47,725 bases of DNA from a virus (IMGVR_UViG_2617270974_000008:1-47725); one strand, 5' to 3'. Positions 981-37,042 are shown, counted from the stretch's first letter. The notes: a model not told the origin generated them from the sequence alone. Translations and numbers: made by a program.

Positions 981-1012
981 AGCCCGCGATATTTTAAGCG
1001 GGCTTTTATTTT
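981..1012 (+). terminator. Rho-independent terminator after catalase gene
   Basis: agcccgc-N10-gcgggct stem followed by tttatttt; coordinates by eye. Confidence 0.5.
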
Positions 1013-1146
1013 AAACTTCTGGTATTACAGGCCACTCAATATGAGGTGCTGTTGATGTATCAACACGGTTCAGCAACACCCGATACTTCTTCCAGGCTTC
1101 CAGCAACGAGGTTTCTTCCTCCGTTGCATATACAGCTCACCTTTTT

Positions 1147-1440
1147 TCACCCACGATTAACCAACAGCCAGACCAGCAGACACGCCACCACCGGCACAGC
1201 AAAATCCATCAGGCTTGCCACATCCCACGCGCGCGGATCAAAACCACCCCACCACGGCATATTCATTCGCTTGCCATGCCCGAACATTTCAATCCAGCGA
1301 TATTCTGCCTGGGTGTGTTCACGCGCAATGAAGAACGTACAACCGGCTATCGCCCCGCAAGCCCAGTTCCCGGTAAAAAGACCAATCAGTAGCTGCGCAG
1401 CCACAGCACAAAGCGCATGAAGGAAAGGTGTTATATCCAT
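1147..1440 (-). CDS. Hypothetical small membrane protein (terminal moron or host flank)
   Basis: ORF 1147..1455 with hydrophobic segments; start placed at ATG 1440 preceded by GGTAGGA; no recognised family. Confidence 0.45.
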   Translation of the reverse strand: MDITPFLHALCAVAAQLLIGLFTGNWACGAIAGCTFFIAREHTQAEYRWIEMFGHGKRMNMPWWGGFDPRAWDVASLMDFAVPVVACLLVWLLVNRG

Positions 1441-1452
1441 TTTCATCCTACC

Positions 1453-1476
1453 CAATAAAACGGGGCGCTCGGCCCC
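1453..1476 (-). terminator. Putative intrinsic terminator downstream of tail-fibre gene
   Basis: ggggc-gctcg-gcccc hairpin with T-run on minus strand; by eye. Confidence 0.35.
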
Positions 1477-1482
1477 TTAATA

Positions 1483-2523
1483 TTATTTAGACGCAAGCGC
1501 CGCCTCAATTGCAGATAATCTTTGTCTTAATTCTGCGTTTTCTTCTTCCAGTGCTGTTATTCTGTCATCTGACTCTCTGGCTACCTGAACAAGCAAGCCA
1601 GTAACACCAGAATAATCTACTGTGTAATAACGTTCACCTTCTTCACCTTCCGATCCGCTCGCACCGTCCTGATATTTCATTGCGGAACCTACAACTTCTG
1701 GGATTGCTTCCAGAGCTTCCTGTGCAATGACACCAGCATAGGGCATACCGTTTTCTTTAAGCGTGTATGTATAGCCGTTCATTTTACGGATGCGGTCGGT
1801 TGCATTATCGATCACCTGAATGTTGTCTTTCAGATCCCGGTCGGAATGCTGGTTAAATGCGGTGGCATGACATGCACCATTAACGCTTAACATATAGGTG
1901 TTATCGGTATTTTTCTGCGCATAGAACATATAAGCGCCACCATCAACACCGACTTCATAAACAACAGGACGGCTGGAGTTGCCCCACAATTGAGCAGTAA
2001 CACCAGCATAAGCGGTTCCCTGTGTGTTTAATGTCATGGTTGACCCATGATTGGCATATTTGATCTGTAATGTGTCGGTGTAATCAAATTTAATAAGCGC
2101 GTTACTTCCACGCTTGCTGTATGACATAAGGCAGTCACCCATTTTGAGGTATCCGCTGTCACCGGGAAAAATCATCGTACCGCCATAAAGGTTGGTAAAG
2201 TCCCAGCAAATGTTTGTCCCGTTATCGTTCAGGTTAAGGCGCGCCATTGCGTTACCTGGACTGTCTATCCATTTTTTGAGGTATAGTTCGCAATACGCAT
2301 CCTCAACACCTGCCGTCCTGTGAGTTGAGCGGAGTTTTCTCCCAAATATAGCTCCGCTAGTTGGCAATACCTGCTGATACCATGAAGCAGACCAGTCACC
2401 AACGATTTCATCTTTGCTGTCTACATATAATTTTGTTGCGTAGCTTCCTTGATCGTTTTTTAATTTGCTAACGTCGGATTTTAGCGTTTTGATGTCATCA
2501 GGAATTACTGTCGATGTAGCCAT
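1483..2523 (-). CDS. Tail fibre / receptor-binding protein with C-terminal intramolecular chaperone (peptidase S74-like) domain
   Basis: 346-aa ORF; C-terminal HSDRDLKDNIQVID...GYTYTL motif typical of auto-cleaving chaperone domains of tailspikes/fibres, then coiled-coil tail. Confidence 0.7.
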   Translation of the reverse strand: MATSTVIPDDIKTLKSDVSKLKNDQGSYATKLYVDSKDEIVGDWSASWYQQVLPTSGAIFGRKLRSTHRTAGVEDAYCELYLKKWIDSPGNAMARLNLNDNGTNICWDFTNLYGGTMIFPGDSGYLKMGDCLMSYSKRGSNALIKFDYTDTLQIKYANHGSTMTLNTQGTAYAGVTAQLWGNSSRPVVYEVGVDGGAYMFYAQKNTDNTYMLSVNGACHATAFNQHSDRDLKDNIQVIDNATDRIRKMNGYTYTLKENGMPYAGVIAQEALEAIPEVVGSAMKYQDGASGSEGEEGERYYTVDYSGVTGLLVQVARESDDRITALEEENAELRQRLSAIEAALASK

Positions 2524-2532
2524 TTTTCTTCC

Positions 2533-2814
2533 TCACATCCAGCCACGAAGTTGATGCTCAACAGCAACCACGTATTCATCGAATAATGACGATATTTGCG
2601 AATCATTAATGATGCGCACGTTTACAAAATATCCGTCTTCCTTAACACATACCGGTTCGCCATCTTCAGTCAGTTCTCCGGTTTCTTTGTACACGTTACC
2701 TATCACGTCAATAAGAATATCATCCTGCATCGACTCGTCATCATAATAGCCAGTACTCTCCATAAAGGCCGAAAAGCCGGCCCTGTCGGCAAATTTGAGT
2801 GTTAAATCTTTCAT
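2533..2814 (-). CDS. Hypothetical small acidic protein between the two fibre genes
   Basis: 93-aa ORF whose start abuts stf stop; position suggests fibre accessory role; no motif recognised. Confidence 0.45.
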   Translation of the reverse strand: MKDLTLKFADRAGFSAFMESTGYYDDESMQDDILIDVIGNVYKETGELTEDGEPVCVKEDGYFVNVRIINDSQISSLFDEYVVAVEHQLRGWM

Positions 2815-5195
2815 TAGATTGACTCCCCCACCTGAGCATCAGTCAATGCCTTGTGCCATATTCTGAAATTCCTGACATGACCAAATAAATGACGTAACCC
2901 GGCTGTAGTCTGGCCTCCAATACGGATCATTGCGGTGTTCTGAATACAGGACCATGTGGTTTTTGTTTCGCTGGATATATGCCCGTTACTTACTGAGCAC
3001 GTAGACTGCTCTGACTTTACACGCATCCCCATAACCATTTTTTCAAGCGATGCGTTTTCGTTTACCCGTCTGTTAGCTCCTCCAATATCGCAATAAGGAA
3101 ATCCGTCGTAATCTGTTGAACGACCGAAGCCAAGAATAATAGCCGCTCCGGTTTGATGACCGCCGGTATCAAAAACACGTGGCGCTGCATTTGGCGTTTT
3201 ATACCAGTTCTTATGTACCTCACAAAGAACCGTAAAAGGAAGATTATAAAGATTATTCTTAATTGGAACTGTAACTATATCGCTTGCGCGGGTCGCCGCC
3301 GTCGCTCCTGATATAATAAAAGATGATACACAAGGCCCATCTTCTACTTGTGGGGTGGCCAGATAAATATAATCACCAGATACGGTTGCCCCGCTCTGCT
3401 TAGGAGAATACTGTATCTGAGAGCCTATTTTTAACTCCCCATCAATTGCCTGAATTGTTGCCTCTGCAAAAATCCATCCGGTAGCTTCGTCCTTTCTGAC
3501 TCTCGCTGTGATCCTTGAGGCAGCACCGCCTGTCATATTAATTTCAAGCGTTTGTGTATCAATATACGCATCACCAAGAAAAGTTGTTGCGCTACCGTCA
3601 TATTTATCAAACCGGATACGCAACCTTACCTGCAGTTCTGTTTTAAAACGACATGAGGTTGTCACGTGTTTATTATCGCCTGAGACATCAACTGACTTTG
3701 TTGCAGCAATTGATGCCATATTAATGGCTGAGGTTTGCCCAATCAGAGAATCGTTGCAGACAAACTTTCCATAGGTAAAACCAAAATTATCCGTCCCTGT
3801 TTCGGGCACATCCATATTTGACGATCGCCCCCAACTGGCAGGGCTTTCCGAATTGAGCATGTAGTTTGTTCTTTGCCCCTCAATAAGCAGGCCATCACGT
3901 TCAAATCGTGGCTCGTCAATGGCAGCCTCTGTCAGCACACCAGATTTGTTAATATAGGTTGCTTTCGATGCACGTTTAAACTTAACAATCTTGTCGCCAG
4001 GCATCGTTATTTCATCGTCACCAATAACAATTTTTTTATATGATGGCGAAAAGCCCGTAATCATATCCAGCGAATCGTTAAATGGTATCCACACATCAGG
4101 CAGCGGCTGTAAGACATATTTATACGGCTCCGCAGCCTGGCTTGCGTACTCTCTGGCTGCATCTTCGCTTGCTTTAGCTGCCGTCTGGCTTGCTGCCGAT
4201 GCTTTCGCTGAGTTCGCAGCCGCTGTTTCGCTCACCTTTGCGTTGGTTTCACTGGTTTTTGCTGCTTTTTGACTGTTAGCTGATGCAGTGGCAGAAGCAG
4301 CCGCCGCGCTTGCAGAACTGGCTGCGGCACTCTCGCTTTGGGCCGCTGCATCCTGACTGCTTTTCGCCGCAGTTTCACTGGCTTTGGCATTCGTTTCGCT
4401 GGTCTTCGCTGCCGTCTGGCTGGACTTTGCGTTAGTTTCACTCGTCTTCGCAGCTTTCTGGCTGTTAGCCGCAGCAGTTGCTGATCCAGCTGCTGAAGTC
4501 GCAGAACCGGCTGCCGCGCTCTCGCTTTGGGCTGCTGCAACCTGGCTGTTTTTTGCCGCAGTTTCACTGGCTTTAGCATTCGTTTCGCTGGTCTTCGCTG
4601 CCGTCTGGCTGGACTTTGTGTTGGTTTCGCTCGTCTTTGCGGCTGTCTCGCTATTTTTCGCGTTGGTTTCTGATTTTTTAGCTGCTGTTGCGGAGTTTGC
4701 CGATGCAGTCTGCGAGGCCGCTGCCGCCTGTGCGCTGTTAGCTGCATTTGTTTCTGAGGTTTTCGCCGCGTTCTTCGATGATGCCGCTGCAGTTTCGGAT
4801 TTCTTTGCCGCCGCTGCGCTCTGAGAGGCGGCTTCAGCGTTGCGTGCCGCTTCTTCCACCATTTCCTCAAAACGACGCAATGCCTCCGGCATGACATCAT
4901 CTTCCGTCATGGCACCGAGAAAATCATTCAGCGTACCTGGTCTGGAACCTTCATAGACGGTAATGATCCCGGCATGTGAAGGCGGAAAACCTTCAACCAG
5001 CAGGATAACGCTATACTGGCCATACTCAACGTCCATGCTGTAACGCCCGGCTTCATCCGGATTTTCAGAGGCCACCGTGTTCACCAGTACAGTGGTGCTG
5101 TTACGCTTTGCCTTCAGTTGAATAGTGCAGTTCTGTATTGGTTTTCCCGCACCATCTTTCAGCACACCTGAGATTTTTACTGCTGCCATATCCAC
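2814..5195 (-). CDS. stf: Side tail fibre protein (lambda Stf-like N-terminus, Ala/Ser/Thr repeat array, LamG-like C-terminus)
   Basis: 793 aa; N-terminal ~110 aa match recalled lambda Stf (AVKISGVLKDG...GRYSMDVEYGQYSV...); C-terminal ...HVRNFRIWHKALTDAQV resembles end of concanavalin-like/LamG jelly-roll domains. Confidence 0.85.
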   Translation of the reverse strand: MDMAAVKISGVLKDGAGKPIQNCTIQLKAKRNSTTVLVNTVASENPDEAGRYSMDVEYGQYSVILLVEGFPPSHAGIITVYEGSRPGTLNDFLGAMTEDDVMPEALRRFEEMVEEAARNAEAASQSAAAAKKSETAAASSKNAAKTSETNAANSAQAAAASQTASANSATAAKKSETNAKNSETAAKTSETNTKSSQTAAKTSETNAKASETAAKNSQVAAAQSESAAAGSATSAAGSATAAANSQKAAKTSETNAKSSQTAAKTSETNAKASETAAKSSQDAAAQSESAAASSASAAAASATASANSQKAAKTSETNAKVSETAAANSAKASAASQTAAKASEDAAREYASQAAEPYKYVLQPLPDVWIPFNDSLDMITGFSPSYKKIVIGDDEITMPGDKIVKFKRASKATYINKSGVLTEAAIDEPRFERDGLLIEGQRTNYMLNSESPASWGRSSNMDVPETGTDNFGFTYGKFVCNDSLIGQTSAINMASIAATKSVDVSGDNKHVTTSCRFKTELQVRLRIRFDKYDGSATTFLGDAYIDTQTLEINMTGGAASRITARVRKDEATGWIFAEATIQAIDGELKIGSQIQYSPKQSGATVSGDYIYLATPQVEDGPCVSSFIISGATAATRASDIVTVPIKNNLYNLPFTVLCEVHKNWYKTPNAAPRVFDTGGHQTGAAIILGFGRSTDYDGFPYCDIGGANRRVNENASLEKMVMGMRVKSEQSTCSVSNGHISSETKTTWSCIQNTAMIRIGGQTTAGLRHLFGHVRNFRIWHKALTDAQVGESI
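4240..4700 (-). repeat. Tandem coding repeat (about 192-bp period, roughly 2.3 copies) inside stf
   Basis: Near-identical DNA blocks (gcattcgtttcgctggtcttcgctgccgtctggctggacttt recurs about 192 bp apart); encodes repeated AAKTSETNAK... segments. Confidence 0.7.
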
Positions 5196-5253
5196 TCCAC
5201 AAAAAAGCCCCCCTGAACCGGCGGGCTGTCATAACACTGTGTTACCTGGCTAA

Positions 5254-5853
5254 TCAGAATTTATAACCGACACCCACGATGAAACCGTCAGTGCGCCAGT
5301 CGCCACTGCCGGAGCCTTCATAAGCAATATCAATGGCCACGGATTCGGTCGGGTTAAACTGCACGCCAGCTCCCCACGCCAGAGACGTGTTGCTGTGGCG
5401 ATCGTCATCACTTCCGGTCAGCACATCGTGCGTTTTCCCCTTGTTGTCAGTTACGCGGAGATAATCCCCGGAGAACGTCGAAACACGGCTGTAAGCCACA
5501 CCTGCCATCGCATAAGCACTGAACCATTCATTCACGCGTACAGATGGCCCCGCCATCATGCTGAACCAGCGGTTACGCACTGAATCTTCATGCCAGCGGG
5601 TATCGCTGTAATGCGTTTTTTGCTCATCTTTGGCATTGGCATAACTGAATGACGTCACCAGCCCCAGCGTGTCCGTAAATTCATAACGGTATTTCACGTT
5701 AATGCCCTTCAGGTCATCACTGCCTGGCATATCAGTATGGGTCTGAAGATACCCGACGCTTAGTGTGGACTGATGCTCTGCTGCGCTCGCTGGCGTACCA
5801 GCGGCAACCAGCCAGACTACTGCGGACAGAATAACAGCACATAATTTACGCAT
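5254..5853 (-). CDS. lom: Outer membrane protein Lom (Ail/Lom family)
   Basis: 199 aa; signal peptide; strong match to recalled lambda Lom incl. C-terminal ...FIVGVGYKF. Confidence 0.9.
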   Translation of the reverse strand: MRKLCAVILSAVVWLVAAGTPASAAEHQSTLSVGYLQTHTDMPGSDDLKGINVKYRYEFTDTLGLVTSFSYANAKDEQKTHYSDTRWHEDSVRNRWFSMMAGPSVRVNEWFSAYAMAGVAYSRVSTFSGDYLRVTDNKGKTHDVLTGSDDDRHSNTSLAWGAGVQFNPTESVAIDIAYEGSGSGDWRTDGFIVGVGYKF

Positions 5854-5920
5854 AATTACCTCTCGCTTTTCTGCAATAAAAAAGGCGCCATTTCTGGCGC
5901 CCGTATCTGGGTTATAAAAT

Positions 5921-8900
5921 TCAGCTAATCGTGATGCCTGCAGTGGCTTTCTTCATCACAACAACCAGCAAATCGCTGATACTTGCTGTGGGATACCAGC
6001 CATTTACCCACCATGCTGATACAGAAAACTCCAGTGTCATTACGCCACTGCCTGCAGGCATATCAATAACACCCGTGTAAATCAGAGTATTATCCAGAGC
6101 CGTTCGGTTATAAATTTCAGCCCCGTTTTTCTTCACTATCAGGCGGCATGACGAATAAGTATCGCTATTCTCCCGTTCATGTCTGGCACCGCTGAAAGCC
6201 ACCGCTGGAATAACAATTTGCCGGTCAAACGGCTGATCGTCATAAACCCTGACGGTAATGGTCCCTGATGGCCACCGCTCCGGTGCACGGGAGTCCCGGG
6301 GGAAAGCTTTGCCCACTGTTTTAACGAGATCGCCTTCAATCTGGTTCGCGGACAGTTTTCCCAGAACCCGACAGTTCTCGTTAATCGTGACGTTGTTGAG
6401 CGTCCCGGAGTTCGCATTCACGCTACCGCTGATATCGGCATTTTTCGCCGTCAGCCGCCCGTCCGGTGTCAGGGAAAATGCCGGAGGATTGCCGCCACTG
6501 GTAATGGTGGGAGCCGTCAGATACTTCAGGAACACTTCGTTCATGAATATCTGGTTGCCCTGCGCCACAAACATCGGCGTTTCATTCCCGTTTGCCGGGT
6601 CAATAAACGCGATACGGTTAGCAGCAACCAGGAACTGGCTCAGTTTGCCTTCCTCCGTATCCTCCATACTAAGGCCAAGCCCCGCGACATAATGCCTGCC
6701 GTCTTCGGTCTGCTCAATTTTGACGCCCCACATGGCATTCCATTTATCGTTGGCGTCCTTCCACTCTTTCGAAAACTCCTCCAGTTTGCTGGCGTTATCC
6801 TCCGTCAGCTCGACTTTTTCCAGCAGCTCCTTGCCGAGATGGGATTCAGTTATCTGGCCTTTGAAAAAATCCAGGTAACCTTCCGCATCATCGCTCGCCC
6901 GACCGACAGCCTCCACGAATGTCGATTTGCCGACGGTGTTCACACTGCGAACGTAAAAATAATAATCATGGCCCGGTTTGATATTGATACTGGCGGCTAT
7001 CCAGTACAGCGCCGTGCCAAGATAGCGGGCTGTGGTTTCAACCTGCCTGATATCCGCAATCCGCTTTTCCGAGAACCAGAACTCAAACTGTACAGTCGGA
7101 TCATAAACCGCAAGATGCGGCGTGGCGGTTATCTGAAAATAGCCCGGCGTCAGCTCAATCCGCGATGGCGCTGCCGGTGCGGCAATCCGGAACGATACCG
7201 ATGCCGGATCGCCCTGCTGCCCCCACGCATTTACCGCCCGGACTGTCAGACTGTAATTTCCCAGCGCCAGTTGCGTGAATCGGTATGTGGTTTCCGTCGT
7301 CCGGGCCGTGCTGACCAGCCGCTCACTGCCGTCATCCGCTGCCACGGTCAGGCGAAGCATAAAGCTCACGCCCTTCACCACCTTCGGCGTATCCCAGCGC
7401 GCCAGCACCTGGTATTCCCCGCTGTCTGCGGTGACTTCTGCGGTCAGGTGTTGCACTGCTGGCGGCGTGACACCATTCACCGTGCCGCTCTGGTCGCCGT
7501 CAAAGTACGCCCCGTTATCCACGATGGCCTCTTTTTCCGGTACATGCTGCACGGCGGTGATGGCATACGTGCCGTCGTCGTTCTCACGGATACTCACGCA
7601 GCGGAACAGGCGCTGGCGCAGCGTCGGCAGCTTCAGCCCCCACACGCTGTATTCAGCAACACCGTCAGGAACACGGCTCACTTTCACCTTCACGCCGTCG
7701 GTGACGGACTGGACCTCCACGCTGACCGGATTGCCACTTCCGTCAACTAGGCTTATCAGCGTGGTACCGGAGGATGGCAGCGTGATTTCACGGTCGAGCG
7801 TCAGCGTCCGGGTCTGGCTGTTCACCGCCAGCACACGACCACCGGTGCTGATACCGGCATAGTCATCATCGCAGATTTCAATAACATCACCCGGGACATG
7901 GCGAAGCCCTTCTGCGCCGACGCTGAAATCCACGGTCTGCGTTTCCAGCAGTTCTGTTTTAATCAGCCACAGCCCGGCGCGGTGTGCCTGCCCCCGGCTG
8001 GTACAGCCAAAAGCATCCATCTTCGTGACGTTACGACCGTAACGGGCAATGGCCTGCGTATCTTCAACAAGCTCTGTCGCCGTCTCCCAGCCGTTGTTCG
8101 GGTCAATCCAGTTCACCTCAACGGCATTATGGCGGTCCTTGAGGGCGCTGAAGCTGTAGCGGAACGGCGCGCCATCATCCGGCATCACCACATTACTGCG
8201 GTTATAGGTCCACACCTTATCCGACGGTCGGTCCTGCACGAACGTCAGCGTCTGCCCGTTCCATACCGGCATACAGCGCATCGCCGAGCAGAAATCACTG
8301 AGCACATCCCACGCCTTGCGCTGTGTGGTCAGGTAAGCGTTACAGGTGATGCGCGGCTCCGTGCCACCAAAACCGTCCGGCACCGACTGCTCGCAATGCT
8401 GGCCGATGACATACAGCGCCCATTTGTCCACATCCGCCGCACCAAGACGTTTCCCCATGCCGTAGCGCGGGTGGGTCAGCATATCCCACAGACACCAGGC
8501 CATGTTGTTGCTGTATGCTGGCTTAAACGTTCCGTCCCAGATACCGCTGTATTGCCGCGTCTGCGGGTTATAGTTCGACGGCACCTGCAGAATGCGCCCG
8601 CGAAGATGATAATTACGGCTCACCTGCTGGCTGCCGAACTGCTCCGAATCCACCTGCACGCCGACCAGTGCCGTGTTCGGGTAGCACTGTTTCACATCGA
8701 TGATTTCGGTGTATGACGACCAGAGCGTTTTGTTCTGCAGCTGGTCTGTGGTGCTGTCCGGTGTCATCCTGCGCATCCGGATATTGAACGGTCGCGGCGG
8801 CAGGTTATCCACCACCACCGAGACCAGATACTGCGACGTGGTTTTGCCCTTAATGGTGATGTCTTTTTCTGTCACCCAGCCACCGTTACGTTGTATCTGA

Positions 8901-9316
8901 ACCAGCAGGCGGACTTCCGACGGATTCCGGTCACCCTTTGAGGTGGTTTCCACCAGTGCCTGCACACCGAAGGTAAAGCGCAGACGGTCGATGTTTGCAG
9001 ACGTGATGGTCCGGGTAATCGGCGTGTCATATTTCACTTCCGTACCCAGCACCGTCTCGGAGCCGGAGGATTCAAACCCCTCCGGCGGTGTCTGCTCCTG
9101 TTCACCTGCCCGGAACACCACCGTGACACCGGCGATGTTGGTATTCCCCTCACTGTCCAGCACCGGTGTACTGTTCAGCAGCACGCTTTTTAATCCATCC
9201 ACCGGACCTTCAATCGGCCCTTCGCTGATGGCATCAATCACACTCAGTAACTGCGTGGATTTCAGGTTGTCCTTCGCTTCGCGCGGGGTATGCCCCTTAC
9301 TGCTGCCTTTACCCAT
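5921..9316 (-). CDS. J: Tail tip host-specificity protein J
   Basis: 1131 aa; N-terminus [24 protein letters not shown]... and most of length match recalled lambda J; C-terminal ~150 aa divergent. Confidence 0.95.
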
Positions 9317-33840: not shown

Positions 33841-34938
33841 TTATGGTATTAATCCAGCTGTTCTTGCTTTATTAATATAATTTTTACAGTGGTTAGCCAA
33901 ATACTCTGCAAACTTGCATGGAAGTGCATTTCCTATTATGACGCATACTTTATCCATCAAAGCTGTATCAAACACATAGTTATCAGGAAAAGTCTGTAGT
34001 CTAGCAGCTTCTCGAACAGAAATAGTACGCGTATCCTCAGGATGTCCATATCGCCCACGGCTTAAAGTTGTGCACCCACCTGTAATCGTAGGCGATACGT
34101 CATCCCAAAGCATACGACCATAAACATTACTAAATCCTTTATAGTCGCCTTTATGGCAATCTGGACGGAGTTCTTCGGGAATACACTCCCAAGACATCCC
34201 TGGAACAGCCGCTTGTAACCGCTTTATATTGATCTCAGACAAATCCCTAACAATATGCCAACTCGACAATGGAAACTTCCCTTGCTTCTTAGCCTGTGAA
34301 AGAGTTAAGGGTTTTGGCATATCTCCAATAGCTTCTTTAACAGTTACCCATTTGGGTTTCTCTCTTCCATCCTTAGAGTGTGATCCATCAGGCAATGGGA
34401 TGGCAAATCCTTTTCCTGCCAACAGAACAAGCCTTTTTCTGAACTGTGGTACACCAAAGTCAGCTACTTGCAAAACTCCATAATTAACTATGTAACCAAG
34501 TTTTTTCAATCTCTCAATTACTGGCGAAAGAAGATGATTTCCCCGGGAAGCTAATCCAGGAACATTTTCCATCATGATTGCTGATGGATTGGTTTCTTCA
34601 ACCAACCGTAACATCTCGTTAATCAATAAATTACGAGGGTCCTCCCTTTTATACTTGGCAGTGAGACTAGTAAATCCTTGACATGGCGGGCACGCAGATA
34701 AAAGATCTAAATGTTGCTCAGGGATAAGATTTAGGATATCACTCCCCTTTACAAACCGAATATCTTGAACAAAGAGTTTTGTCTCACGATGATTTGCTTG
34801 GAAAGTAGCGGCGGCATGTGCGTCCAGTTCAACGGCAGCTTTGACATCAAACCCGGCCATTTTTAGTCCCATGGTTAGTCCCCCACCACCGCTAAATAGG
34901 TCAACTGCATTCAAACTGGTCACTGTTTTCTCACTCAT
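33841..34938 (-). CDS. DNA (cytosine-5)-methyltransferase
   Basis: 365 aa; motif I DLFSGGGG, motif IV PPCQGFT, motif VI ENVPGL, motif VIII QFRKRLV, motif X IGNALP; start overlaps upstream gene stop by 8 nt. Confidence 0.9.
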   Translation of the reverse strand: MSEKTVTSLNAVDLFSGGGGLTMGLKMAGFDVKAAVELDAHAAATFQANHRETKLFVQDIRFVKGSDILNLIPEQHLDLLSACPPCQGFTSLTAKYKREDPRNLLINEMLRLVEETNPSAIMMENVPGLASRGNHLLSPVIERLKKLGYIVNYGVLQVADFGVPQFRKRLVLLAGKGFAIPLPDGSHSKDGREKPKWVTVKEAIGDMPKPLTLSQAKKQGKFPLSSWHIVRDLSEINIKRLQAAVPGMSWECIPEELRPDCHKGDYKGFSNVYGRMLWDDVSPTITGGCTTLSRGRYGHPEDTRTISVREAARLQTFPDNYVFDTALMDKVCVIIGNALPCKFAEYLANHCKNYINKARTAGLIP

Positions 34939-37042
34939 TATTTCCCAACTTCAACTGTTCTGCCTCATCCAAGAATTCTTGGTGAGTTTGAGTTGTCCTC
35001 AGCAAGAACCCTGCCCAATCAACGGGTGTTAGGCGTTTTTCTTCGATGTATGCAGTATAAGCTTTACGACGTGCCCCACTCAAGCGCTCCCCATCACTTA
35101 CCAGCGTAACGTGAAAATCAGATGCTATTGATTTAAAATCATTATGTCTCTCATCGTTCAAAAACTCCTCGAATGTTTCGAAGTAATTAATAATACGATC
35201 CATTTCATCATTGGAAATATAATGATGTGGCTTTTTTATTTCAATTATTTGTAATTTTCCATCCTGACTAAACAATACAAAGTCTGGTCTTTTATTTTTT
35301 TTATCAAAATCTATAAGAAATATCTCCTCACCAGTTTTCTTTTTATAAAATTTTTGAAATTCCCTTTTAAGCGTGGACAACGTTTTATTTGCTGTAACTG
35401 GGACCCATTGAGGGTTAACTAGCCACGGAGCGGATGCAATTAGATCTTGTAACTCATCTTCTGCTGTATCCTTTGCGTCTTTTAAAGACTCGAGACGCTC
35501 AATAATCTGAAGACGCTTTTTGACCTTTTGACCAAAACTAACGGTTTCAGCTAGTTGAGCCGTTGCTAAAATATCGTTGAGAACATTGAGCGGTGTATCC
35601 GCTTTACTGGAAGCTTCTATTAACTTCTCATCTAAGGATTGTAATGGTGCTAACATAATACTTAACTGCACTAAATTCTCGAGTGCATCAGGATCATGTA
35701 ATTCATCACCTCGTAAAGATTTACCCAACAACTTGGCTATTTTTTTAGCCTGTGCTCGCATATCCTTTTGACCGGCTCCAGGGTATGCTTGCTCGACCTT
35801 ATCCTCCACTTGCGCTAATTCGAAGAATTGATTCATCATATTATTTCTAAGGGGGTCGCGAGTTATTTTACCCACAAGTAAAATAACTTCTTGCCCCCAA
35901 TTCTGAAATTGCGTTCCTAAATCATCAGACCATAGAATATCCCTTCTATCAGTTTGGATAAGATCTTCTTTTTCGTCTAACCAGTCAGCATGCAACTCAC
36001 CTACCAAATATGAACGTATAGAGTGCTCTCCAGTAAAACCAGCTTTTCTATTAAAAACTGCTGTTTGCGCAGCAAACTTACCTCGGCAATAAATTCTAAC
36101 ACCTGCCATTAACTCGTCCTTATAAGGCTCTTTCGCGTATGCAATCCAACCTAATATCGGGTAAGCTTTCCCTTCATGTTCAAAACCGGCCTTAACAATT
36201 GATGAACGCGTGCCGTCAGGATTAAAAGCCGTATAATCACTTAAATCCGTACAAGAATCTGTCGCAATACTTCCACTCATGGAACGAAATTCAATTTTAG
36301 AGTTAGGCATAACAGGAACAGTAAACTCTCCGACCTCAACTTCATAGTCAGGATTAGACTTTGTTTTCGAAGTATCAATCAGTTTAATATTCCAGTTTTT
36401 ACTCTTCACTCCAAAACGTTGTGAAAGCTGCCGAGATAAATCTTTTATTTCGCTAATTTTTCTATATTCAAAATCACTTAATATTATTTTAGTATAGGTC
36501 CTGTCACTTAGTGTGCCGTCTAAATCCCCAGTTTCCGGTTTATAAGACACTGCAGTATCATCCATTATTTTTTCTTTATCTAGCTGAATATGAGCAACCT
36601 CATACCCTTCCTTTCCATCACGACTGATTTTTTCCCCACCGGCACTTATAATCTCGACCCTTTTACAAACACCAAAAGGTGCTAATTTCCCAACGCCTTT
36701 CCGTCCCATGACTTTGCGGTGAAACACCTTCGAGGTTTCACCTCTTTTTGGATCCTTACGTCTTTCTTTGCCAACAACCAAATAAAAGTTCTGTAGTTCA
36801 TCAGGCGCCATTCCGACGCCATTATCTTCTACTTCTATTGTGACATTTTTTGACCTGACAACACCATCCTGTCTAACAGCCAAGTATTGGCCCATAGGTG
36901 CTTTTATAGTGACATTAGTCGCATCTGCATCGTAACTGTTAGATACTAATTCGGCTATAACAGCATAAGCCCTGTCATATAATTTCACACCTAATTTATC
37001 TACTGTCATCCTTGATATCTGCATTTCATATTGACGCGCCAT
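34931..37042 (-). CDS. GHKL (Bergerat-fold) ATPase fused to C-terminal PD-(D/E)xK-like nuclease motif
   Basis: 703 aa; N-box ELVSNSYDADAT, G1 DNGVGM, G2 GRKGVGKL; C-terminal ...RPDFVLFSQDGKLQIIEIKK (PD...E-x-K); AT-rich codon usage; SD AGGA before ATG. Confidence 0.8.
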   Translation of the reverse strand: MARQYEMQISRMTVDKLGVKLYDRAYAVIAELVSNSYDADATNVTIKAPMGQYLAVRQDGVVRSKNVTIEVEDNGVGMAPDELQNFYLVVGKERRKDPKRGETSKVFHRKVMGRKGVGKLAPFGVCKRVEIISAGGEKISRDGKEGYEVAHIQLDKEKIMDDTAVSYKPETGDLDGTLSDRTYTKIILSDFEYRKISEIKDLSRQLSQRFGVKSKNWNIKLIDTSKTKSNPDYEVEVGEFTVPVMPNSKIEFRSMSGSIATDSCTDLSDYTAFNPDGTRSSIVKAGFEHEGKAYPILGWIAYAKEPYKDELMAGVRIYCRGKFAAQTAVFNRKAGFTGEHSIRSYLVGELHADWLDEKEDLIQTDRRDILWSDDLGTQFQNWGQEVILLVGKITRDPLRNNMMNQFFELAQVEDKVEQAYPGAGQKDMRAQAKKIAKLLGKSLRGDELHDPDALENLVQLSIMLAPLQSLDEKLIEASSKADTPLNVLNDILATAQLAETVSFGQKVKKRLQIIERLESLKDAKDTAEDELQDLIASAPWLVNPQWVPVTANKTLSTLKREFQKFYKKKTGEEIFLIDFDKKNKRPDFVLFSQDGKLQIIEIKKPHHYISNDEMDRIINYFETFEEFLNDERHNDFKSIASDFHVTLVSDGERLSGARRKAYTAYIEEKRLTPVDWAGFLLRTTQTHQEFLDEAEQLKLGNNE

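Follow-up and report, generated by a model that had tools for sequence, protein, structure and literature searches.

A probable two-segment side-tail-fibre cassette in a lambda-like prophage of Escherichia coli

Gene order and the lambda-derived part of the fibre

Host recognition begins with the side tail fibres, and exchanging the tip of the side tail fibre protein, Stf, is in use to re-target particles derived from lambda. The fibre genes described here lie in IMGVR_UViG_2617270974_000008, a 47,725-nucleotide (nt) stretch of viral DNA, referred to as the window, which is an apparently intact lambda-like prophage of Escherichia coli. Its 5-kb fibre region (1000-6000) is 99.9% identical to strain CH10508, in which the prophage spans from an integrase adjoining tRNA-Ser to a manganese catalase gene. 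We consider the locus to be probably the side-tail-fibre cassette of this prophage, serving primary adsorption and built as a two-segment fibre, in which a lambda-type attachment domain and shaft would carry a lectin-fold tip with a second, shorter fibre docked onto it. An earlier, sequence-only reading had assigned a mosaic fibre module to 1483-5195, limits that coincide exactly with open reading frame (ORF) boundaries. The features of the cassette are as follows (aa, amino acids; bp, base pairs):

2814-5195, minus strand: Stf gene (ORF), 793 aa counted from GTG 5195
4794-5189, minus strand: Stf start ATG 5189 (likely) and N-terminal virion-attachment domain, aa 1-132
4125-4838, minus strand: Stf shaft, aa 118-355, 34 uninterrupted heptads in register
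4219-4652: 189-bp tandem duplication (63 aa, nine heptads), two full copies at 4219-4407 and 4408-4596 and a partial third
2817-4106, minus strand: Stf C-terminal module, aa 362-791, a conserved neck (PLPDVWIPFNDSL...) and then predicted ConA-like lectin domains
3285-3995, minus strand: predicted lectin domain 1, homologue of the RcGTA head spike fibre (Rcc01080), with conserved edges and a variable centre
2829-3272, minus strand: predicted lectin domain 2, LamG/pentraxin-like, ending in ...RHLFGHVRNFRIWHKALTDAQ
2533-2814, minus strand: 93-aa partner protein of the lectin module, its start overlapping the stf stop
1483-2523, minus strand: 346-aa distal fibre, whole ORF
2458-2523, minus strand: N-terminal 'plug' of the distal fibre (MATSTVIPDDIKTLKSDVSKLK), a putative docking peptide
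1846-2457, minus strand: body of the distal fibre and presumably its receptor-binding part, aa 23-226 of the 346 aa
1483-1845, minus strand: Peptidase_S74 intramolecular chaperone, aa 227-346, stop codon included

The genes of the cassette are closely packed. The 793-aa length previously given for Stf is that of the ORF from GTG 5195; however, the likely start is ATG 5189, which yields a 791-aa protein, because GGAG lies 5 nt upstream of this codon and PGAP uses the same start. The stop codon of stf and the start of the 93-aa gene overlap as TAATG, and the 346-aa gene starts 9 nt past the stop codon of the 93-aa gene, preceded by GAGGAAG. A second fibre gene is present behind stf, as had been noted; the 93-aa gene lying between the two had been overlooked.

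The N-terminus of Stf matches the prophage tail fibre domain PF08400 (E 1.5e-66) and chain Ta of PDB 9e7m, a 94-aa 'Tail fiber protein' that we take to be the lambda Stf N-terminus (E 9e-49, ~88% identity over 93 aa). Lambda orf-401 aligns with aa 3-329 of Stf at 58% identity, and all three comparisons agree with the earlier claim of a lambda Stf N-terminus. The shaft (aa 118-355) is made up of heptads with the consensus ETNAKxS / QTAAKTS, in which Ser and Ala occupy fixed positions. Its Ala/Ser/Thr/Lys-rich composition had been taken as a departure from lambda, which does not hold, as orf-401 carries the same heptad shaft. Given that lambda Stf aligns through the shaft region, the alignment places the shaft within the lambda heritage and the mosaic junction at its end. 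No similarity was found between orf-401 and Stf past ~aa 330, and the lambda/T4 gp37-like, Tfa-dependent type of tip was not found in this alignment.

Homologous fibres have been modelled or solved as three-helix coiled coils (10.1101/2024.09.12.612763; T5-like LtfA, PMC10713586). Together with the heptad periodicity, this suggests that the Stf shaft would form a trimeric alpha-helical coiled coil, with a length of ~35 nm.

The lectin-fold tip and its small partner protein

The last 430 aa of Stf belong to a family of 2059 clusters at 50% identity. In all 119 whole-query hits the module stops within a few residues of the C-terminus, while the N-termini are varied. A profile built from 38 diverse family members matched the sequence of the RcGTA head spike fibre Rcc01080 (PDB 6tb9_F3) with an E value of 1.9e-36. 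Positions 52-287 of this profile also matched baseplate or fibre proteins of Pseudomonas phage Pa193 and other phage structures (gp45 'Triplex', gp17), and positions 293-433 gave weak matches to pentraxins and to botulinum-toxin (BoNT) binding-domain chains. On Stf itself, NCBIfam NF048003 (GTA_spike_fiber) was detected at aa 437-637 in the 793-aa numbering (E 3.3e-13, 50.5 bits against a cut-off of 36). Laminin_G_3 (PF13385) matched 34 of the 38 family members, the best at 6.6e-12, and the Stf of the window with E 0.0038 and 17.8 bits, below the cut-off of 27.6.

An AlphaFold2 prediction of the module with the family alignment gave a confident all-beta model (pLDDT, the predicted score in the local distance difference test, 90.3; predicted template-modelling score, pTM, 0.86), with a lectin-like beta-sandwich jelly-roll of the ConA/LamG/pentraxin/CBM40 type. 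The profile matches indicate that the module comprises two ConA/LamG-type lectin domains, and the prediction bears out the LamG/concanavalin-like C-terminus that had been proposed. Conservation is concentrated at the domain edges and in the neck (PLPDVWxPLNDSL..., ...RHLFGHIRNxRIWHKALTD), and the domain centres are variable. The (I/L)-G penton-anchoring repeat of GTA spike fibres was not found in Stf, whose N-terminus is instead the PF08400 tail domain. Stf therefore shares just the domain with the GTA head spike fibre, and the protein is a tail fibre.

In RcGTA, the head spike fibre consists of a single flexible subunit, which attaches to capsular polysaccharide (PMC7296036, PMC10218006). Because this homologue binds capsule, glycan binding is plausible for the module and is our best guess for its function, with O-antigen or capsule as candidate receptor. 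The lectin domains would bind such a surface glycan reversibly, the conserved edges serving as scaffold and the variable centres conferring specificity. One paper on the Gifsy-1 Stf and one on a lambda-P2 chimera contain nothing on this lectin-module type of tip. A further arrangement was seen in a metagenome contig (4001-8251), where consecutive genes for fibres of 759 and 554 aa both end in the same lectin module and a 76-aa homologue of the small protein lies between them.

No Pfam or NCBIfam family covers the 93-aa protein, and every source calls it 'hypothetical'. In all contexts examined its homologues come after the lectin module, even where there is no second fibre: in lambda-like phages, P2-like myoviruses, T5-like phages including IrisVonRoten and APCEc03, Dhillonvirus KarlBarth, Drexlerviridae tinuso, Nonagvirus JenP1, rV5-like CarlMeissner (a weaker match), Lambda_2E9 and two further contigs. 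Eight aligned homologues have G39, Y42, G61, V64, N65, R67 and W92 invariant. No similarity to known Tfa (Caudo_TAP) families was detected in sequence or in fold, and the best structural match, a weak one, was the MecA adaptor domain. Translationally coupled to stf and accompanying the module throughout, the protein would act as a dedicated assembly or accessory factor of the module, and we lean towards a chaperone that replaces Tfa.

It is also possible, though we think it doubtful, that the 93-aa protein is no folding chaperone and instead resides in the virion as a structural adaptor that caps Stf or bridges it to the distal fibre. The IrisVonRoten homologue is annotated as 'tail fiber protein', the BASEL text gives Gp22 and Gp23 together as the proximal fibre, and the weak MecA match is itself to an adaptor domain. 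Yet the protein is found where there is nothing to bridge, and in P2-like loci it sits at the gene position of the Tfa/gpG chaperone. A role solely as a bridge to the distal fibre was ruled out by its presence in many loci that lack such a fibre.

The module itself might serve as a structural knee or connector like T4 gp35, which holds the distal fibre and leaves receptor recognition to the latter. We find this unlikely. One Foldseek match in BFVD, to a T4-like 'hinge connector of long tail fiber' (E 1.8e-7, query-normalised template-modelling score 0.36), fits such a role, as does the strong conservation of the N- and C-terminal edges of the module. However, the module and the small protein occur with no distal fibre in a P2-like phage, in Lambda_2E9 and, within one sample, in ~70 of 80 lambdoid loci, so that the module is the tip of the fibre there. 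The hypervariable domain centres are also what would be expected of receptor-binding surfaces, and the homologous RcGTA protein binds capsule (PMC10218006). A lectin-type, receptor-binding tip is therefore preferred for the module.

The distal fibre, its docking and shaft-length variation

Peptidase_S74 domains act as intramolecular chaperones of phage fibres. In the 346-aa protein, PF13884 matches aa 227-278 (E 4.8e-14, 52.8 bits against a gathering cut-off of 22), the match beginning at S227 of SDRDLKDNI, and the intramolecular chaperone of phage S16 gp37 (6f45) matches with E 0.0013. The dyad S227-D-R-D-L-K232 has the spacing of Ser1264/Lys1269 in T5 pb1, where cleavage takes place at Thr1263|Ser1264 and Lys1269 activates the serine (PMC4690869). 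The S74-type chaperone recognised earlier is thus well founded, and its auto-cleavage is a prediction from the motif. Because Ser227 and Lys232 reproduce the catalytic spacing of pb1, self-cleavage is predicted at His226|Ser227 and would leave a mature fibre of 226 aa. The protein would trimerise with the help of the chaperone, which would then cut itself off.

The 346-aa protein belongs to PHROG 4563, its aa 92-342 resemble S74-bearing long-fibre tips (PHROG 6578, 5668), and a weak match to the T4 gp34 repeat was obtained. Pfam and PHROG scans gave no recognisable tail-attachment domain. A 234-aa allele of the distal fibre in another IMG/VR prophage locus (L057, 5292-5996) has the same N-terminal plug, a mostly coiled-coil body and a divergent chaperone-like C-terminus with the motif SSIRYK. 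Should this motif denote a functional site of cleavage, very little of the fibre would be left afterwards.

The N-terminus of the distal fibre carries a plug motif, M-x-T-x-T-x-IP-x-DI-x-x-LK, within its first ~16 residues (MATSTVIPDDIKTLKS). The motif is common to otherwise unrelated distal fibres of lambda-, T1-, T5-, 9g-, Dhillon- and P2-like phages, whose lengths are 346 aa (here), 234 aa (sister prophages), 224 aa (tinuso), 351 aa (JenP1), 98 aa (KarlBarth gp30), 574 aa (IrisVonRoten gp24), 580 aa (APCEc03) and 303 aa (P2-like), the last of these relying on a Tfa in place of an S74 domain. The plug-bearing fibres always lie directly behind the module and the small protein. Among 13 phage records listed in both the module and the plug searches, the plug starts ~285-290 nt past the end of the module. 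A second sample of 80 loci contained six intact, fibre-like ORFs downstream, every one with the plug motif, and ~70 lambdoid loci in it passed straight to the 97-aa membrane protein with no distal fibre. LtfB of DT57C was considered as a plug homologue and rejected, as the search matched ltfA alone, through query residues 27-42 and not through the plug (residues 1-16).

Given the fact that the host phages have unrelated tail tips and differing baseplates, the docking partner of the plug should lie within the cassette. From this pattern we infer that the 346-aa protein docks on Stf. The mature 226-aa fibre would plug onto the Stf end through its conserved N-terminal peptide and add a second receptor-binding tip, and this distal segment would be optional and exchangeable. 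What had been called a second fibre is indeed a fibre gene with a chaperone, but the best reading of it is as an optional segment at the distal end of the Stf fibre.

An independent second fibre, attached to the tail tip (for example to J) and not to Stf, would agree with a separate gene that has its own folding chaperone, and the physical link to Stf is a predicted one. We nevertheless judge this improbable. The 346-aa protein has no tail-attachment domain of its own that could be recognised, and its plug is conserved across the differing tail tips and baseplates of five siphovirus groups and a P2-like myovirus, always behind the module and the small protein. Lambdoid relatives with the same tail genes, moreover, do without the 346-aa fibre altogether.

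We propose, as an idea we hold slightly more doubtful than credible, that the ~92-aa family is an undescribed accessory class obligately paired with the double-lectin tip, and that the 15-residue plug is universal, exchanging unrelated distal fibres among sipho- and myoviruses that share only this socket. If true, this would be a portable, ready-made docking system that adds a second receptor specificity to a phage.

Variation in the length of the shaft was also analysed. Tandem Repeats Finder reported a period of 189 bp with 2.2 copies at 4236-4652 (84% matches, score 596) and nested periods of 42 and 21 bp. The tandem array predicted by the sequence-only reading is thus present, but with a period of 189 and not 192 bp. 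The two full copies are 81% identical. Relatives that share more than 95% identity in the C-terminal module had shafts of 142, 163, 205, 219, 254 and 268 aa, all congruent modulo 7. When aligned, they showed that stretches of 63, 49, 105 and 126 aa had been lost cleanly and in frame at repeat-homologous junctions, some relatives being short by exactly one or two 63-aa units. Repeat number is hence not invariant among relatives, and the suggestion that copy number is a route of length variation is supported. In the IMG/VR prophage loci (80), ~70 of 74 scorable Stfs had 781-801 aa and three were clearly shorter (687, 728 and 729 aa).

These observations are consistent with occasional changes of shaft length, mostly in whole heptads, through unequal recombination among the heptad repeats. 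Such changes would be tolerated because the heptad register is kept, so that the fibre survives. A programmed, high-frequency length switch (contingency locus) is very improbable: near-identical relatives do differ in shaft length, but the 189-bp copies are only 81% identical and the narrow range of nearly all scorable Stfs fits rare, tolerated recombination.

A frameshift in the repeat array of RefSeq entries such as CP055048 was considered and rejected, as the ORF there is unbroken and differs from the window by 19 substitutions and no indel. In NZ_CP055048.1 the same gene as window 2814-5195 lies at 3286-5661 and has no frameshift and no stop. RefSeq/PGAP nevertheless splits Stf in many genomes into a 416-aa 'phage head spike fiber domain-containing protein' (a cluster of 364 member sequences) and an N-terminal pseudogene; this split is an annotation artefact over the low-complexity shaft. 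The heptad-repeat DNA is also overlapped by two spurious long ORFs, one of 222 aa (4232-4900, in another frame of the minus strand) and one of 146 aa (4384-4824, plus strand), which are by-products of the repetitive, biased sequence. The annotated antisense orf206b of lambda sits at the equivalent place.

Several points weigh against the two-segment reading as a whole. The trimeric coiled-coil state of the shaft and the site and manner of attachment of the distal fibre are inferred, and the 93-aa protein may or may not be part of the virion. The module was modelled as a monomer, whereas the end of the fibre is expected to be trimeric, and its receptor is a candidate only. A few singleton relatives also differ in shaft length by 34 and 16 aa, which are not heptad multiples.

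Neighbouring genes, distribution and comparison with known systems

The cassette is flanked by the following genes:

5921-9316, minus strand: J
5254-5853, minus strand: lom, between J and the Stf gene
1147-1441, minus strand: 97-aa predicted membrane protein (PHROG 1443)
1011-1127, minus strand: tfa remnant, the last 38 aa of Tfa, matching PF02413 Caudo_TAP

The tfa remnant matches positions 95-131 of the 131 of PF02413 (E 3.3e-16), is called a pseudogene by PGAP and adjoins the Mn-catalase gene at the prophage edge. This stub is the scar where the lambda-type tip and its chaperone were replaced. The 97-aa protein has a multi-pass membrane prediction and no Pfam family. Its gene is the constant last gene of the late operon in lambdoid prophages with or without a distal fibre, lying directly after the small protein in ~70 of 80 loci without one and after the distal fibre here and in L057; it is possibly a candidate lysogenic-conversion or exclusion gene. 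Far from the cassette, in the early region, an overlapping gene pair on the minus strand (33841-34938 and 34931-37042) encodes a C5 cytosine DNA methyltransferase (PF00145, E 6e-58) and a 703-aa GHKL-ATPase protein that matches PADLOC type II restriction enzyme models (E 6.7e-34). On these matches, the pair is likely a module for restriction-modification or defence carried by the prophage.

Phages 2G7b, Tritos, HannyBb and PhiR63_1 carry the entire cassette at 98-99% identity, and it was found at a coverage of at least 80% in 375 of 5,426 complete E. coli genomes. There are 218 phage records with the lectin module, and each of the three proteins has a PHROG family. The cassette is an ordinary, widespread modular type of lateral fibre of enterobacterial phages, largely described in other coliphages. 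It does not overturn current understanding but serves as a practical guide to a fibre type common in E. coli prophages, in which the part played by the ~92-aa partner and the contact of plug and socket are modest points of interest. For the re-targeting of particles, natural cut-and-paste points would lie past the heptad shaft and past the 15-residue plug of the distal fibre, and the shaft could be lengthened or shortened by heptads with the fibre left intact. The ~92-aa partner accompanies the lectin-type tip in every case, so tip grafts would need that gene.

Compared with the Stf/Tfa system of lambda (Ur-lambda), the cassette has the same gene position after J and lom, the same N-terminal attachment domain and the same Ala/Ser-rich heptad shaft. 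It differs from ~aa 360 onwards, where the lectin module stands in place of the Gly/His-rich, Tfa-dependent tip, and in having Tfa cut down to a 38-aa remnant and extra genes for proteins of 93 and 346 aa. RcGTA Rcc01080 (GhsB) shares the homologous ConA-like domain. In contrast, it is a single subunit, resolved at residues 2-10 only and held on capsid pentons by an N-terminal Leu-Gly repeat, whereas here the domain would stand at the tip of a trimeric tail fibre and be followed by a LamG-like domain.

The L-shaped fibre pb1 of T5, of the endosialidase-type chaperone class, likewise ends in an S74 domain with Ser-x4-Lys and binds O-antigen (PMC4690869), but here the mature part would be just 226 aa, without its own tail-attachment domain. 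The branched LtfA/LtfB fibres of DT57C share the concept of a first fibre that carries a second (PMC4728585, PMC10713586). Their docking system is another one, and LtfA ends in its own S74 domain and not in a lectin-type module (PMC4728585).

Tequintavirus IrisVonRoten (Bas32 of the BASEL collection; bas32_0022/0023/0024) has the same gene order of proximal fibre, 92-aa protein and distal fibre, with 62.5% identity in the module, 37% in the 92-aa protein, and a distal fibre that has the same N-terminal plug and an S74 chaperone. Its proximal fibre has an N-terminus of the T5 pb1/LtfA type that docks via LtfC, whereas the backbone here is that of lambda, and its distal fibre, of 574 aa, is T-shaped and has two receptor-binding domains, in contrast to the short 346-aa fibre of the window. 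In published AlphaFold-Multimer models of IrisVonRoten, the C-terminal domain of the proximal fibre is 'galectin-like' and a chaperone-bearing distal fibre is attached to that fibre (10.1101/2024.09.12.612763), with which the distal docking proposed here agrees.

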